Shown one piece after another: positions 641-6,417 of a stretch of 6,417 nt of DNA; position 1 is the stretch's first letter; every line of letters begins with the position of its first letter. The position numbers and the translations under genes are program-made. The notes beneath the pieces are model-generated. The model made no database searches. It was not told the DNA's origin and saw only the letters and a program-made list of their open reading frames with translations. The stretch is from IMG/VR virus record IMGVR_UViG_2693429748_000018; one strand, given 5' to 3'. The stretch comes from a virus. Taxonomy: Duplodnaviria; Heunggongvirae; Uroviricota; Caudoviricetes.

Positions 641-838
641 ATGCTAAAACAGCAGGATATGACAGAAACCGCCAGAGTGGTGTTTAATGAATTAAGCGTT
701 ACCGAACCGGCGACAGTCGGGGAGATAGCGCAGAATACTTACCTTTCACGCGAACGCTGCCAGTTAATACTGACCCAGCTGGTTATGGCGGGTCTGGCAG
801 ACTATCAGTTCGGTTGTTACAGACGCCTTCCGCAGTGA
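641..838 (+). CDS. Hypothetical small protein (65 aa), possible helix-turn-helix DNA-binding protein
   Basis: ATG at 641 preceded by AAGGAAAAG (purine-rich Shine-Dalgarno about 6-8 nt upstream). The segment TVGEIAQNTYLSRERCQLILTQL looks HTH-like. The stop sits inside a terminator hairpin. No family recognised. Confidence 0.5.
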   Translation: MLKQQDMTETARVVFNELSVTEPATVGEIAQNTYLSRERCQLILTQLVMAGLADYQFGCYRRLPQ

Positions 839-1349: not shown

Positions 1350-1703
1350 TTGATTGAGTGTTTGTTATACGGTCTAATGGTTTTTTCAGCATTAAATATT
1401 TATCATTCATATGGTGTGGGTAGAGTGAATATTGATGAGGCGTCGGGGTGTTTCATCCTTAGGCAGCGTATTGATATAGTCAATGCAGCACGAGCAAAGG
1501 CCTTCAGCCGTTTGACAGTTTTGTTCTGTACTCCTGATCGTCTTTCGGGAAGAGACGTTATTATTCTGAATAGTGATGCTATACAGAGGGTTTGCGATGA
1601 GTTCATGGTTGCTAATTCAGAATTATTTGCTCTTGTTCAGGAGTACAACAGAATAGCCAGGACCTGTGGTATGGATGAACTTCGGATTACTCATCTGGGG
1701 TAG
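1350..1703 (+). CDS. Hypothetical protein; first ORF of the cargo region (track start TTG 1350; first in-frame ATG at 1377 gives 108 aa)
   Basis: Open frame of 117 codons with no family recognised. No convincing Shine-Dalgarno before either start. Possible weak promoter TTGTCA (1322-1327). Coding status uncertain. Confidence 0.35.
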   Translation: MIECLLYGLMVFSALNIYHSYGVGRVNIDEASGCFILRQRIDIVNAARAKAFSRLTVLFCTPDRLSGRDVIILNSDAIQRVCDEFMVANSELFALVQEYNRIARTCGMDELRITHLG

Positions 1704-1907
1704 ATACATATCTGGATTATCACCTGTTACGGTAAAAAGTGATTGCTTACTGTTTTTGTGAATGGCATTGCAGCAGCCGGATAATGTCAGTGCTGGCTGA
1801 CGGTGTGCTGGTGGCGGGTGTGGTGGTTGTTGCTTTCCCGTTGCTGAAAAAGAAAACGCCAGACTGTTAGCCGGGTATCAGTTAGCGGGAGAAATTTTTA
1901 AATACTT

Positions 1908-2130
1908 CACAATTCAGGCGGTTGACTGTTGTCTGGTTTGCGGGGAGTTTGTTAAAAGAAACTGGCATGGTGAATCCCCCTGTGCGGAGGGGCAATCAGC
2001 GAGTAGGTATATGGGATAATCGCGGATTCAGGTGCTGGTACTGAATTCACCGGGAGGCACCCGGCACCATGCAATGGCACATAGCGCCACTCTCCAGCCC
2101 CTCTCCGGAGGGGCTGTTTATATTGATTTT
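1908..2130 (+). repeat. Structured non-coding module, copy A (promoter-like TTGACT, internal hairpins, terminal intrinsic terminator)
   Basis: Begins CACAATTCAG (1908-1917), then TTGACT (1922-1927), hairpin CCCCT-GTGCGG-AGGGG, hairpin CCGGG-AGGCA-CCCGG, ending in terminator stem AGCCCCTC (2096-2103) / GAGGGGCT (2108-2115) with loop TCCG and a T-rich tail. Near-identical to copy B, about 70-75% to copy C. Small ORFs inside are not conserved between copies. Confidence 0.8.
2096..2130 (+). terminator. Intrinsic terminator ending module copy A
   Basis: Perfect 8-bp GC-rich stem AGCCCCTC/GAGGGGCT, 4-nt loop, then GTTTATATTGATTTT. Confidence 0.6.
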
Positions 2131-2148
2131 GTCAGATGTGAGTAAACT

Positions 2149-2180
2149 CCTTATGGACTTTGTTGTTTTAGTCCATAAGG
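2149..2180. repeat. Perfect 11-bp inverted repeat (CCTTATGGACT ... AGTCCATAAGG) with 10-nt loop at the 3' end of the minus-strand gene
   Basis: 2149-2159 is the exact reverse complement of 2170-2180. It overlaps the stop codon of the 2151-2486 minus-strand ORF. Confidence 0.7.
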
Positions 2181-2486
2181 ACATATTTGCAGAGTGCAAC
2201 GGTTATTAAAGCATTCATTCAATACGTTATCTGTATTTGTAGGGCATTCCTGGCTATTTTTGATTGAATTCCAGAATGTTTTATTGAATGGTACTACGTT
2301 GTAAATGGTTACAGGTAGCACTTTGTTATTGAGCATGATGCCTGTGTGAGTCAGTGTAAATATACTTTCAGGAGGTAAGAAAGCATCCGATTGATACCAG
2401 ATTATTAATTTTATTTTACTCCATATGACTGAAAAAGATATTCCGCATGATGGCTGGATAACTGTATCAATCACAATCCACTTCAT
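2151..2486 (-). CDS. Hypothetical 111-aa Cys-containing protein on the minus strand inside an AT-rich insert
   Basis: ATG (plus-strand CAT at 2484-2486) preceded on the minus strand by AACAAGGAAACTAA, a good Shine-Dalgarno (AAGGA) 6-7 nt upstream. Candidate promoter further upstream on the minus strand: TTTACA, about 15 bp, TATACT. The region is visibly AT-rich relative to its flanks. The 3' end overlaps a perfect 11-bp inverted repeat (2149-2180). No family recognised. Confidence 0.5.
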
Positions 2487-2746
2487 TTAGTTTCCTTGTT
2501 TATGCCTTGCTGGTGATGTTCTGAAAAGTATAAATGATATTTTTGAATGTAAACCATAGAGCAGAATTATTTTTCTGATGTTGTTTATTGTTTATTTAAA
2601 TGCAGGGTGGTTTATATCTCGTCTTGTAGTTTATCCATGCATATCTGCTTGATAATCAGGTTTTTATTTAAGGTATGGTTTTGTGTTTTTTCTGTATTAC
2701 ATGTCAGGTATTTTAAAGAATTATTTTTCAGATGGTGGAAAGAACC

Positions 2747-2806
2747 ATGGCATTTAAACACTATGATGTTGTCAGACTGGCTCGCTTTTGCGGGCCTTTT
2801 TTTTAA
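2747..2806 (+). pseudogene. Truncated duplicate of the esterase (nanS-p) 5' end: 19 codons then stop
   Basis: ATGGCATTTAAACACTATGATGTTGTCAGACTGGCT... encodes MAFKHYDVVRLARFCGPFF*. The first 9-10 codons match the start of the full-length gene at 3740 (MAFKHYDVVR...). It is followed by a T-run. Confidence 0.6.
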
Positions 2807-2812
2807 ATGTCT

Positions 2813-3025
2813 CACAATTCAGACGGTTGACAGTTGTCTGTTTTGCGGGGAGTTTGTTAAAAGAAACTGGCATGGTGAATCCCCCTGTGCGGAGGGGCAA
2901 TCAGCGAGTAGGTATATGGGATAATCGCGGATTCAGGTGCTGGTACTGAATTCACCGGGAGGCACCCGGCATCATGCAATGGCACATAGCGCCACTCTCC
3001 AGCCCTCTCCGGAGGGGCTTTTCTG
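2813..3025 (+). repeat. Structured non-coding module, copy B
   Basis: CACAATTCAG (2813-2822), TTGACA (2827-2832), the same two hairpins as copy A, and terminal stem CCCTC/GAGGG with loop TCCG followed by CTTTTCT. Differs from copy A at only a handful of positions over about 205 bp. Confidence 0.8.
3002..3025 (+). terminator. Intrinsic terminator ending module copy B
   Basis: GC-rich stem CCCTC (3003-3007) / GAGGG (3012-3016), loop TCCG, then a T-rich tract. Confidence 0.5.
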
Positions 3026-3213
3026 TGCCGGATACATCACAGTTTCTGGAACCTTAGGTACTACAGTATCAGTCAGGGTGCTATATTTTCAGATGTGATG
3101 AAAGCCTGTCAGCAGGCAGGGCGTATCGGAAATGACCCAGTAGAGAAAACGTTGACTCAGATACCGGTGCTGAGTTACCGGGAAACCGGCATCACATGAC
3201 CGCTATCCTTCCA

Positions 3214-3240
3214 GGCCCATCCGCTCCGGTGGGCCTTTTT
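3214..3240 (+). terminator. Intrinsic terminator just upstream of module copy C
   Basis: Stem GGCCCA (3214-3219) / TGGGCC (3230-3235) with an inner CCG/CGG pairing, followed by TTTTT (3236-3240). Confidence 0.5.
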
Positions 3241-3279
3241 ACTGCAGAAAACAGGTTCCCCGTTAAATGCTATGTTGCT

Positions 3280-3511
3280 CACAATTCAGTAAGTTGACAG
3301 TTGCCTGTCAGACTGGGCATTTGTTAAAAAAATTTCGCATGGTGAATCCCCCTGAGCGGAGGGGCGACTGGTGACGGTATAATCTCTGATTATCAAAACG
3401 AGAATGACGCGGGTTTAGTGGCACCGGGCTGAACTCACCGGGAGGCACCCGGCACCATGTGCATGATGATACAGATACGCGGCTTTAGCCCCTCTCCGGA
3501 GGGGTTTTCTT
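3280..3511 (+). repeat. Structured non-coding module, copy C (diverged)
   Basis: CACAATTCAG (3280-3289), TTGACA, and conserved blocks GGTGAATCCCCCTG.GCGGAGGGGC, CTCACCGGGAGGCACCCGGCACCATG and terminal CCCCTC-TCCG-GAGGGG followed by TTTTCTT. The blocks between them are substituted or inserted relative to A/B, including a perfect TATAAT in GGTATAATC. Confidence 0.75.
3489..3511 (+). terminator. Intrinsic terminator ending module copy C
   Basis: Stem CCCCTC (3489-3494) / GAGGGG (3499-3504), loop TCCG, then TTTTCTT. Confidence 0.6.
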
Positions 3512-3517
3512 GTGGGC

Positions 3518-3546
3518 AAAAAAAGCCCGCGCTGGGAGACGCGGGC
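3518..3546 (-). terminator. Minus-strand intrinsic terminator, convergent with the copy C terminator
   Basis: Plus strand reads AAAAAAA (3518-3524), GCCCGCG (3525-3531), loop CTGGGAGA, CGCGGGC (3540-3546). On the minus strand this is a perfect 7-bp GC stem followed by a U7 run. There is no U-run after it on the plus strand. Confidence 0.45.
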
Positions 3547-3739
3547 GGCAAGGAATAAACAATAAAACGTGAAGTAATATTTCAGCTGGCGAATAATACC
3601 CCATAGTAATCACTCTGCGCAACTGCGCGGTCTTTTTCGAATTGCGGGCTGTCGTCTCTCTTCTGCCATTGTCCTGTAACTTCCGGACTTCAGCCCGCTC
3701 CTTATTTTACTCACAATATTATCCCGGCCGGGAGGATTC

Positions 3740-5593
3740 ATGGCATTTAAACACTATGACGTGGTCAGGGCGGCATCGCCGTCAGACCTTGCGAAACGAC
3801 TGACACAAAAACTGAAGGAGGGCTGGCAGCCGTTTGGTAGTCCGGTGGCCATAACCCCTTATACCCTGATGCAGGCGATTGCAGCAGAAGGTGATGTGGT
3901 CGTCAGTGGTGCAACTGAGCCGGAGTGGTACTACGTCATCGTACTGGCCGGGCAATCCAATGCCATGGCTTACGGTGAAGGTCTTCCGCTTCCGGATTCA
4001 TACGATGCGCCCCATCCGCGCATTAAGCAACTGGCCCGTCGTAACACAGTGACTCCCGGTGGTGAAGTATGCGTATTTAACGACATCATTCCTGCTGACC
4101 ATTGTCTGCATGATGTTCAGGATATGAGTACGATTAACCATCCCCGGGCTGACCTGAGCAAAGGGCAGTACGGCTGTGTCGGACAGGGCTTACATATTGC
4201 CAAAAAACTGCTTCCGTATATCCCTAATAATGCGGGGATCCTGCTGGTACCATGCTGTTGTGGTGGTTCGGCATTCACCCAGGGCACGGAGGGGACATTC
4301 AGCGAGTCCACGGGGGCCAGTCAGGATTCGGCTCGCTGGGGAGTGGGTAAGCCGTTATATCAGGATCTGCTTTTCCGCACGAAGGCAGCATTGCAGAAAA
4401 ACCCGAAAAACGTTTTGCTGGCGATATGCTGGATGCAGGGGGAATTCGATATGACGAATGCCAGTTACGCCCAGCAGCCAGCAGCATTTCTTGCAATGGT
4501 ACAGCAGTTCCGTGCTGACCTTGCCGGGCTGGCGGCGCAGTGTCACGGTGGAAGTCCGGCATCAGTCCCCTGGATTTGTGGCGACACGACATACGCGTGG
4601 AAACAAGAACACGGTACGCAATATGAAGTGGTATATGGTGCATATAAAGGTAAAGAATCCCAGCAGATTTATTTTGTTCCCTTTATGACCGATGGTAGCG
4701 GAGTTAATACACCGACAAACAACCCGTCAGAAGATCCTGATATTGCCGGGTCTGGTTATTACGGTTCGGCATCCCGAACGAACAAAAACTGGGTATCATC
4801 AAATCGCCCGACGCATTTCAGCTCATGGGCGCGTCGTGGCATTATTCCCGATCGTATGGCAACTGCTATTCTGAACGTAGCCGGTCGCACCTTAGCCTTC
4901 ATTAGTGGTAAGGCACCGGAAATCAAACCCTCGCCCGGCGGCGACACGCCATCGGGGCCGTCTGAAGATGCATCCATACGCACAATCTCCCTGTTGCCGA
5001 CAGCCGGAGACGCTGCTGCGCAGGGCTGGAGCATTAAGAATGGCGGAGTTCAGTTGTCAGATGGTGTATTTAAGATCACCAAGCAGAGCAATAAAGCCTG
5101 GTCCCTGACGCGCCCGGTGGATGACGCAGTCTCCCTGCTGACACGGGGTGGCAGACTGAGCTGTAAGTTTCGACTGTCAGGCGCACTGACCAACAACCAG
5201 TTCGGTCTGGGAATTTATCTGTATACCGATGTAGCGTTACCTGACGTCGTGGCGATGACCGGGACTGGTAACCCGTTCCTGATGTCGTTCTTCACCCAGA
5301 CCACAGACGGCAAACTGAATCTGATGCATCACAAGAAAGCAGGAAACACAAAGTTGGGCGAGTTCGGGAATTACAGTAACGACTGGCTGACGCTGGAGCT
5401 GGTGTTCACCGCCGGCAGTGCCACGGTTACTCCGAAACTGAATGGAGTGGCTGGCCCGGCATTCCAGGTCATAAAAGACAGTCTGACACTGGGGCTGAAT
5501 GCGCTGACGCTGACGGATATTACCAAAAATGCAGCGTATGGCGTTGAGATAGAAAGTCTGGTGCTGGAGATAAATGCACCGGCATCATCATAA
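3740..5593 (+). CDS. nanS-p: Prophage-encoded sialate (9-O-acetyl-N-acetylneuraminic acid) O-acetylesterase, NanS-p/YjhS family (SGNH/DUF303-type), 617 aa
   Basis: ATG at 3740 with a strong Shine-Dalgarno (GGGAGG 7-8 nt upstream). The N-terminus MAFKHYDVV... and the conserved block VLAGQSNAMAYGEGLP (GQSN catalytic-serine motif of sialate O-acetylesterases) match the nanS-p ORF found just downstream of stx in Stx phages and in other lambdoid prophages. The smaller ORFs nested in both strands are shadow frames. Confidence 0.88.
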   Translation: MAFKHYDVVRAASPSDLAKRLTQKLKEGWQPFGSPVAITPYTLMQAIAAEGDVVVSGATEPEWYYVIVLAGQSNAMAYGEGLPLPDSYDAPHPRIKQLARRNTVTPGGEVCVFNDIIPADHCLHDVQDMSTINHPRADLSKGQYGCVGQGLHIAKKLLPYIPNNAGILLVPCCCGGSAFTQGTEGTFSESTGASQDSARWGVGKPLYQDLLFRTKAALQKNPKNVLLAICWMQGEFDMTNASYAQQPAAFLAMVQQFRADLAGLAAQCHGGSPASVPWICGDTTYAWKQEHGTQYEVVYGAYKGKESQQIYFVPFMTDGSGVNTPTNNPSEDPDIAGSGYYGSASRTNKNWVSSNRPTHFSSWARRGIIPDRMATAILNVAGRTLAFISGKAPEIKPSPGGDTPSGPSEDASIRTISLLPTAGDAAAQGWSIKNGGVQLSDGVFKITKQSNKAWSLTRPVDDAVSLLTRGGRLSCKFRLSGALTNNQFGLGIYLYTDVALPDVVAMTGTGNPFLMSFFTQTTDGKLNLMHHKKAGNTKLGEFGNYSNDWLTLELVFTAGSATVTPKLNGVAGPAFQVIKDSLTLGLNALTLTDITKNAAYGVEIESLVLEINAPASS

Positions 5594-5678
5594 AAAGTGA
5601 GCCAGCCAAATGGAAGGTATCGTTAAACTCACCGGTAGTGTCAGTGGGTCGTCTGAGATGCCTGCATGAGTTATCAGA

Positions 5679-5710
5679 GCCATCAGTACTTAACTGGTGG
5701 CTTTTTTTAT
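5679..5710 (+). terminator. Intrinsic terminator between the esterase gene and the lysis cassette
   Basis: Stem GCCATCAG (5679-5686) / CTGGTGGC (5694-5701), 8 bp including one G-U pair, loop TACTTAA, followed by TTTTTTTATT (5702-5711). Confidence 0.6.
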
Positions 5711-5743
5711 TGTTGTCAGCTTCCGGATAACGGGAGACGGGGT

Positions 5744-5959
5744 ATGTACCAGATGGAAAAAATCACAACAGGTGTGTCATACACCACGTCAGCGGTGGGA
5801 ACGGGCTACTGGTTCCTGCAGTTGCTGGACAGGGTTTCCCCGTCTCAGTGGGCGGCAATAGGCGTGCTGGGGAGTCTGCTGTTTGGGCTGCTGACATATC
5901 TGACTAACCTGTATTTCAAAATCAGAGAGGACCGTCGTAAGGCTGCACGGGGAGAGTAA
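5744..5959 (+). CDS. S: Class II holin (pinholin), S21/EssD-like, 71 aa, with dual-start motif
   Basis: [71 protein letters not shown] is near-identical over most of its length to the phage 21 S / E. coli EssD holin as I recall it. ATG at 5744 is preceded by GGAGACGGGG (Shine-Dalgarno), and Met1 and Met4 (5744 and 5753) form the usual antiholin/holin dual start. The 97-aa track ORF from 5666 is an in-frame upstream extension that crosses the 5679-5710 terminator and lacks a ribosome-binding site. Confidence 0.9.
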
Positions 5960-5963
5960 TTCA

Positions 5964-6278
5964 ATGACTCAAAACTATGAACTGATTGTGAAAGGGATCC
6001 GCAATTTTGAGAATAAAGTTACGGTAACTTTAGCGTTACGGGACAAAAAACGCTTTGACGGTGAAATTTTTGACCTGGACATCTCGCTGGACCGTGTTGA
6101 AGGTGCCGCGCTGGAGTTTTATGAGGCAGCAGCCAGAAGGAGCATCAGACAGGTCTTCTTGGATGTTGCTGCCGGGTTATGTGAAGGGGACGAGCTGTTG
6201 CCAGAAACGCGCCCCTGTTCAGAGGCGCGGTATACCATAAAAATTAACAGTTCTGATAACTCGATTACGGGTTGTTAG
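5964..6278 (+). CDS. Hypothetical 104-aa protein between holin and endolysin (same position and size as ydfR-like DUF ORFs in E. coli lambdoid prophages)
   Basis: ATG at 5964, 4 nt after the holin stop, with GGGGAGAG (Shine-Dalgarno) 5-12 nt upstream, so it is translationally coupled to S. I recall a roughly 103-aa ORF (ydfR) at this position in the K-12 Qin prophage; its sequence identity is not verified. Confidence 0.65.
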   Translation: MTQNYELIVKGIRNFENKVTVTLALRDKKRFDGEIFDLDISLDRVEGAALEFYEAAARRSIRQVFLDVAAGLCEGDELLPETRPCSEARYTIKINSSDNSITGC

Positions 6279-6333
6279 CTTTTTGCAGTTGGCTTTCCAG
6301 TATCTTTCATTGGTAGCATCCTGATAAATATCC

Positions 6334-6417
6334 ATGAGCGCAAAAATCAAATACGGCCTGTCAGCTGCTGTTCTGGCGCTGATTGCAAAATGGCATCTGA
6401 ATCGATCGCAGTTTGGC
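6334..6417 (+). CDS. R: Probable endolysin (lysozyme R) N-terminus; partial, continues past the right window edge
   Basis: ATG at 6334 and the frame is open for 28 codons to the window end. MSAKIKYGLSAAVLALIA... is a hydrophobic, signal-like N-terminus that I recall from prophage lysozymes of the RrrQ type. Its position directly after the holin and small ORF fits an S-(orf)-R-Rz cassette. No obvious Shine-Dalgarno; identity is tentative. Confidence 0.5.
   Translation, partial: MSAKIKYGLSAAVLALIAKWHLNRSQFG

Follow-up and report, generated by a model that had tools for sequence, protein, structure and literature searches.

The open reading frame (ORF) at positions 2151-2486 of IMG/VR virus record IMGVR_UViG_2693429748_000018 (Caudoviricetes; 6,417 nucleotides, the whole of which is called the window here) is almost certainly iraL, a prophage-borne paralogue of iraM and a self-contained moron that stabilises RpoS via RssB. 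The coding sequence lies on the minus strand, starts with ATG and specifies a 111 amino acid RssB anti-adaptor of the IraM family. An earlier reading made from the sequence alone (the sequence-only reading) had described the ORF just as it is found here, but had taken its product for an uncharacterised protein of no assignable family. That part must be replaced. The gene is already known: a 2014 study identified iraL, mapped it and established its function (Hryckowian et al., PMC4045071), and it stands here in its usual context. Taken as a whole, the window represents a lambdoid prophage's late-regulatory region, and comprises the C-terminus of Q, a 65 amino acid ORF, tRNA genes, STnc100 modules, an esterase gene and a holin-type gene.

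The assignment rests first on family membership. NCBIfam model NF007393, 'anti-adapter protein IraM', scores the window protein at 162 bits against a cutoff of 121, aligning residues 1-110 of 111 with profile positions 1-113 of 114, and a sequence match to the crystallised IraM fragment (PDB 8TWD) has an E-value of 6.3e-31. Identity to IraM of E. coli K-12 is 61% over 107 amino acids, free of gaps, and about 70% at the nucleotide level. Because protein identity stops at 61%, the window gene is a paralogue of chromosomal iraM rather than iraM itself; IraL of uropathogenic E. coli CFT073 was likewise reported to be 58.9% identical to IraM (PMC4045071). That CFT073 protein shares 110 of 111 residues with the window protein, the sole substitution being L74S, and its gene, C_RS06710 (c1429), matches the window coding sequence at 334 of 336 nucleotides. 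Hryckowian et al. reserved the name IraL for genes with at least 95% identity across 100% of the CFT073 iraL coding region, and the window gene falls within that definition. The window allele, with Ser at position 74, is recorded as a 'MULTISPECIES Shigella' protein on approximately 999 contigs, including S. sonnei 53G, and is plausibly the allele that was assayed in S. sonnei.

The sequence-only reading had left room for the frame to be disrupted in close homologues, which is not the case. A homologous ORF occurs in 1,446 of 5,426 complete E. coli genomes, 1,427 of which also cover both flanks of the cassette described below, and in about 1,440 of them iraL is an intact, annotated coding sequence. 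The ratio of nonsynonymous to synonymous substitution rates (dN/dS) between window iraL and iraM is approximately 0.15, although dS is saturated; as judged from this sequence comparison, iraL is under purifying selection.

The gene looks anonymous for three reasons: PHROGs files its family, phrog_4407, under 'unknown function'; the Pfam copy used has no matching model; and the NCBI Prokaryotic Genome Annotation Pipeline (PGAP) gives homologous ORFs of complete E. coli genomes the name 'anti-adapter protein IraM'. Pfam searches with hmmscan at E-values of 1 and 10 returned no meaningful match for IraL, nor for K-12 IraM, and are therefore uninformative rather than negative evidence. Precomputed annotation tables, unlike these searches, list PF11183 (PmrD) for IraL-family proteins, presumably from a different Pfam version. 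The case exposes an annotation trap, in that PGAP does not tell IraL apart from IraM.

The regulatory signals upstream of the gene agree with published mapping in CFT073. A -35 hexamer (TTTACA, 2553-2548, minus strand) is followed after a 15 nt spacer by a -10 hexamer (TATACT, 2532-2527), which lies 7 nt upstream of the transcription start at 2519. This start is placed by homology to the CFT073 iraL transcript, whose end by rapid amplification of cDNA 5' ends (5'-RACE) was reported as ACATCACCAGCAAGGCATAAACAAGGAAAC... (PMC4045071). The published 5' end, ACATCACCAGCAAGGCATAAACAAGGAAACCA, aligns to the minus strand of the window from 2519 at 31 of 32 bases with one mismatch; single-base differences from CFT073 fall at -1 and +31. 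The sequence-only reading had proposed exactly this sigma-70 promoter, and was right to do so, since the mapped start follows its -10 hexamer by 7 nt. It had also placed the Shine-Dalgarno sequence 6-7 nt before the ATG, where AAGGA is indeed found (2497-2493), at a distance of exactly 6 nt. All three elements have the same sequence in CFT073 and E. coli 042, and the promoter has been reported to be at least 96% identical among strains with iraL (PMC4045071). A generic promoter scan overlooked it because only spacers of 16-18 nt were allowed; the two minus-strand sites that the scan did return were dismissed as lacking support.

The functional evidence comes from published work on the same gene. 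Deletion of iraL in CFT073 lowered log-phase RpoS and shortened its half-life from about 5 to about 2.5 min, and deletion in S. sonnei likewise lowered the RpoS level (PMC4045071). The CFT073 deletion was complemented in single copy by the gene together with a promoter fragment spanning -100 to +33, and plasmid-borne iraL under its native promoter raised RpoS in K-12 (PMC4045071). IraL co-purifies with RssB and, in two-hybrid assays, binds the RssB N-terminal domain only, unlike IraM (PMC4045071). Expression of iraL in CFT073 is up in a fur mutant, and its mRNA rises by 1.6 log2 units on a shift from 23 to 37 C (PMC12890032).

These data, taken with the sequence of the window, suggest the following course of events. 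A lysogen would transcribe iraL from its own sigma-70-type promoter, starting at 2519. IraL would fold as an IraM/PmrD-like beta-barrel, bind the N-terminal receiver domain of RssB and, probably in the manner of IraM, occlude its 4-5-5 face. RssB bound in this way would be unable to deliver RpoS (sigma-S) to ClpXP, so that RpoS would be stabilised in exponential growth and the general stress response of the host raised. During induction, Q-dependent late transcription would presumably run antisense through iraL. We infer from the sequence that the window copy is expressed and active.

Structure prediction, followed by a Foldseek search, bears out the family assignment. The AF2 model places strands within residues 2-66 and a helix at 69-76, with a predicted local distance difference test score (pLDDT) of 80-89 over residues 1-80. 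Its top PDB match is 8TWD chain A (template modelling score (TM) of 0.90 to the target, root-mean-square deviation 1.2 A), whose architecture of an N-terminal antiparallel beta-barrel, a beta-hairpin and one alpha-helix is matched by the model. PmrD is next, with 4HN7; scores against PmrD structures are 0.74 for 4HN7, 0.72 for 2JSO and 0.69 for 2RQX, at 14-21% identity.

In the IraM-RssB structure the contacts form three clusters, and cluster I lies on the N-terminal 4-5-5 face of RssB, where sigma-S binds (PMC10844676). All five IraM residues of cluster I, which contact the RssB N-terminal domain (I4, I6, W22, K26 and I42), are identical in IraL. Clusters II and III contact the C-terminal domain and the linker of RssB. 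Here conservation drops to three of five residues in cluster II (T13S, L75I) and two of four in cluster III (H63N, I64V), with P66 kept. From sequence comparison, the substitutions in clusters II and III appear to agree with the two-hybrid binding of IraL to the RssB N-terminal domain only.

The C-terminal tail (residues 81-111, window 2151-2243) is a separate matter. Its four cysteines (C81, C92, C97 and C102) and an ICPYG motif are invariant in 12 IraM/IraL-family proteins of 60-99% identity. The AF2 model leaves this four-cysteine tail disordered, with pLDDT below 50, and the corresponding tail of IraM was removed for crystallography and described as less conserved and flexible in the published structure. 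The four cysteines and ICPYG may form a metal or redox site. A C-terminal extension of four residues, QQSP, is found in the IraL clade only.

QQSP is encoded by the distal arm of a perfect inverted repeat (2148-2159 / 2170-2181, minus strand) with a 10 nt loop, which forms a hairpin over the last codons and the stop codon. The sequence-only reading was correct that this repeat is perfect and spans the 3' end of the gene, but its arms are 12 bp long, not 11. The 116 nt 3' region of iraL has a folding z-score of -5.7 against shuffles. A strong intrinsic terminator on the plus strand (2095-2116; nine pairs, seven of them G-C, then a T-run), at the end of copy A of the STnc100 module, converges on the 3' end of iraL. 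Both the 3' hairpin and the reverse complement of the STnc100 terminator were considered as terminators of iraL, but neither has a minus-strand U-tract.

A further upstream element was sought since K-12 iraM responds to low Mg2+. Using the PhoP-box consensus KGTTTA-N5-KGTTTA, we found a direct repeat, TGTTTATTGTTTATTTA, at 2582-2598 on the plus strand, 63-79 nt upstream of the iraL transcription start. CFT073 and 042 share this repeat, which departs from the consensus at one base, and 22 of 200 shuffles gave at least one such match in the window. We therefore do not regard it as significant in so AT-rich a stretch, and treat it as no more than a lead.

iraL sits in an AT-rich cassette at about 2120-2746, from the end of module copy A to the base before the start codon of a truncated esterase gene. 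The AT-richness had been noted by eye. Guanine-plus-cytosine (GC) content is 32.2% over 2126-2736 and 28.8% in the region upstream of iraL (2487-2736), versus 50.2% in the rest of the window. The left edge of the cassette is the point at which similarity between the module copies (1895-2119 and 2800-3022) stops. On the right, the truncated start of a DUF1737/SASA esterase gene (nanS-p-like; 2747-2775, plus strand) consists of nine codons and 2 nt, and is 93% identical to 3739-3768, where the full gene starts at 3740. An ORF of 105 amino acids on the plus strand, 2607-2924, overlaps the upstream region of iraL; it has no family match and was rejected as a gene.

The same gene order is found around iraL in CFT073, 042, strain 2013C-3252 and phage vB_EcoS-640R1. 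To illustrate, strain 2013C-3252 has the module, iraL, a full-length esterase gene and a holin gene in succession, and in CFT073, 042 and S. sonnei iraL is followed by a truncated DUF1737 stub that is longer than the window's. The cassette is also present in four sequenced phage records, and its slot in vB_EcoS-640R1 is the same. In the prophage of strain 2D, by comparison, these flanks are present and the cassette is missing. An O157:H7 Stx2c prophage has an IraM-family gene in antisense orientation, with stx2cB on one side of it and the esterase gene on the other, which identifies the position of the cassette, after the late-region STnc100 module and ahead of the esterase and lysis genes, as the stx slot. 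From these comparisons the cassette is best described as variable cargo that lambdoid prophages carry in the stx slot. Both the slot and the variability had been anticipated by the sequence-only reading, as had the horizontal acquisition of a moron with its own promoter. The features observed are those of a moron: a promoter (with a mapped start) on the strand opposite the late genes, a deviant GC content, and presence or absence among related prophages, to which complementation from the native promoter in CFT073 can be added (PMC4045071). Q-dependent read-through is no means of expressing iraL, because the gene runs antisense to the late operon.

Several points weigh against the reading of the window gene as an active stabiliser of RpoS. 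The functional data come from iraL of CFT073 and S. sonnei, not from the window locus, and the mode by which IraL would block RssB is extrapolated from the IraM-RssB crystal structure. The 15 nt promoter spacer is sub-optimal, and H-NS could silence the upstream region, with its GC content of 29%. The substitution L74S adjoins cluster II residue 75 in the helix, yet it is the standard Shigella allele, and deletion of iraL in S. sonnei had a phenotype. A terminator scan combined with folding gave no canonical terminator on the minus strand; two stable 3' hairpins were found, neither with a U-tract. Finally, the junction at 2775/2777, to the right of the cassette, has no match in 5,426 complete E. 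coli genomes, GTDB species representatives, JGI metagenomes or IMG/VR, collections that do not systematically cover Shigella assemblies. The placement of the cassette in the window is therefore without independent verification.

This last point bears on the alternative that survives best, namely that iraL is real but that its tandem arrangement (module A, iraL, a 29 nt stub, module B and the full esterase gene) is an assembly artefact or a constructed chimera of two S. sonnei prophages. We hold this to be the less likely account, though one with an appreciable chance of being right. The window splits cleanly: one S. sonnei prophage (prophage 'B') accounts for 1-979 and 2777-6417 at 99.7-100%, and the prophage that carries iraL in S. 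sonnei 53G (prophage 'A') accounts for 981-2775 at 100%. The junctions at 979-981 and 2775-2777 are sharp and lack flanking homology, each has one base that matches neither parent, and the right junction cuts the start of the esterase gene after 29 nt. The right junction, with the 35 nt sequence CACTATGATGTTGTCAGACTGGCTCGCTTTTGCGG, was absent from the collections searched, in which Shigella genomes were not systematically covered. Lambdoid mosaics typically have sharp boundaries, and the left junction coincides with a common natural module boundary just before a tRNA gene. Assembler chimeras, moreover, normally join inside shared repeats rather than at non-homologous points. A natural contig (L014) has the iraL cassette and an identical esterase region in tandem, and a deletion of approximately 2.9 kb would nearly yield the window junction. 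The identity of iraL is the same whether the window is a strain-specific recombinant or a chimera.

It is improbable that the window iraL is silent or inactive, through H-NS, a weak promoter or L74S, and so rides as a passenger with no effect on RpoS. Such an explanation could draw on the 29% GC content of the upstream region, the 15 nt spacer and the position of residue 74 beside an interface residue. Thermoregulation is common among H-NS targets. In CFT073, iraL mRNA rises on the shift to 37 C (PMC12890032). However, the promoter hexamers and the Shine-Dalgarno sequence are the same as those of the CFT073 promoter, which is active in log phase. Loss of iraL lowers RpoS in S. sonnei, and the window allele is the common Shigella allele. 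Purifying selection on the family also argues against a passenger.

The fold raises the question of whether the protein is instead, or in addition, a PmrD-like connector that acts on a response regulator other than RssB, for instance by protecting phosphorylated PmrA. The model does resemble PmrD (TM 0.69-0.74), precomputed annotations place the protein in PF11183, and IraM, like PmrD, increases the net phosphorylation of its partner (PMC10844676). Identity to PmrD, however, is only 14-21%, the five residues that contact the RssB N-terminal domain are all conserved, and both RssB binding and an effect on RpoS half-life have been demonstrated for IraL (PMC4045071), so that we consider such a target very improbable. 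A role as a toxin, an immunity factor or an anti-phage defence factor, which the sequence-only reading had suggested as a candidate function, is scarcely credible: a moron slot in a prophage often houses genes of this kind and phrog_4407 is of 'unknown function', but the cassette has no partner gene, the protein matches a characterised regulatory family strongly and specifically, and the defence version falls because no family among the PADLOC defence models was matched at E-values up to 1.

With IraL retained as the product of the antisense gene, the rest of the window can be described briefly. The C-terminus of the Q-type antiterminator gives weak matches to DnaJ-type zinc-finger motifs. Downstream of Q, the 65 amino acid ORF (641-838, plus strand) has no family match but carries a gene call in the S. 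sonnei prophage loci. It has one in 2013C-3252 too, where a DNA methyltransferase cassette, absent from the window, comes after it. Two tRNA genes follow on the plus strand, at 987-1062 and 1163-1239. The first has the anticodon CAT and is called tRNA-Met by ARAGORN, whereas PGAP calls its homologue tRNA-Ile, presumably with a lysidine-modified CAT; the second is a tRNA-Arg (TCT), reading the rare codon AGA. Between the tRNA genes and module A, a second AT-rich stretch (34-44% GC) holds an ORF of 117 amino acids (1350-1703, plus strand). This ORF matches phrog_2873, of unknown function, at an E-value of 4e-70 and has no Pfam or NCBIfam match. PGAP makes no call for it in 042, CFT073 or 2D, but an S. 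sonnei assembly (L009) has a gene of 108 amino acids called at about that position.

STnc100 small RNA modules (Rfam RF02076) recur in tandem on the plus strand. Copy A, the left flank of the cassette, spans 1936-2125 and scores 132 bits against a gathering score of 47; the other strong matches are at 2841-3030 (124 bits) and 3308-3517 (161 bits), and weak or degenerate ones occur at 2699-2808 and 3069-3242. Copies A and B, compared over 1895-2119 and 2800-3022, share 96% identity and stand on either side of iraL. The same GGGG-CT hairpin motif closes all three full-length copies; the terminator scan covered 1900-3000, and the copy A hairpin scored as terminator-like. We take the position of STnc100 to correspond to the late promoter/terminator unit of lambdoid phages, and the window may hold three such units in succession. 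Directly after the esterase stub and before copy B there is another terminator-like hairpin with a T8 run (2779-2796, plus strand), which is part of a 'leader' located after the tRNA region of the other S. sonnei prophage. The full esterase gene of the window encodes 617 amino acids, and its exact product carries DUF1737 and SASA in Shigella assemblies.

On the whole, the anatomy that the sequence-only reading drew (ORF, Shine-Dalgarno sequence, promoter, hairpin and the logic of a moron) proved accurate with small corrections. Among known systems the closest is iraL of CFT073 (WP_000871291.1), whose prophage has the order Q, tRNAs, a DUF3927 ORF, an STnc100 module, antisense iraL, DUF1737/esterase and holin; the window differs in keeping 29 nt of the esterase stub, with a second STnc100 module after it. 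IraM of K-12 (YcgW, b1160) belongs to the same family as IraL and has the same fold; the two also agree in their contact residues for the RssB N-terminal domain, in ICPYG and in the four cysteines near the C-terminus. The iraM gene lies beside the e14 prophage, however, and the upstream region is unrelated to that of iraL. Published work describes Mg2+ starvation as the inducer of IraM, which touches both domains of RssB, whereas the action of IraL falls in log phase. RssC of Salmonella belongs to the same iraL-iraM-rssC family, at about 49% identity to iraL by ClustalW (PMC4045071).

Another relative occupies the same slot, also antisense, in a Stx2c prophage of E. coli O157:H7 17B6-2. This paralogue, WP_001303568.1, is 74% identical to IraL in amino acid sequence. 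Its gene lies at 3501-3824 of the locus examined (L018; NZ_CP038414.1), antisense between stx2c subunit B and the esterase gene. It differs from iraL in forming a distinct clade (about 77% nucleotide identity), in lacking QQSP and in lying immediately downstream of stx2cAB. This third IraM-family clade, found in enterohaemorrhagic E. coli, adjoins stx2c at the one locus examined. A related cluster (P0005) is 70% identical to K-12 IraM. Within the literature that could be searched, no paper mentions IraM together with Stx2c. Two broader readings suggest themselves. One is that the IraM/IraL family is systematic cargo of the stx slot, with an apparently undescribed third clade beside stx2c; the other is that the cysteine tail acts as a stability switch, sensitive to metal or redox state, through which anti-adaptor activity is controlled. 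Both were considered in the light of conservation and context, neither is specific to the window, and that either would prove right seems rather unlikely. If the first were true, a lysogen with a Stx or lambdoid phage would have its RpoS stability rewired.

PmrD resembles IraL in its fold of a beta-barrel plus helix and in being a small protein that binds the receiver domain of a response regulator. It differs in its target, which is PmrA rather than RssB, and in having no Cys-rich tail, and at the sequence level IraL did not fall within the PmrD family. With the classical lambdoid morons (stxAB, bor and lom), iraL shares the character of an autonomously transcribed insert of deviant composition between conserved phage genes, whose expression in the lysogen benefits the host. 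The stx genes are co-transcribed with the late genes; iraL differs from stxAB in being antisense to the late operon, an orientation observed directly in the window. It is a clean case of a prophage moron that, instead of encoding a toxin, re-tunes a core regulator of the host through RpoS proteolysis.

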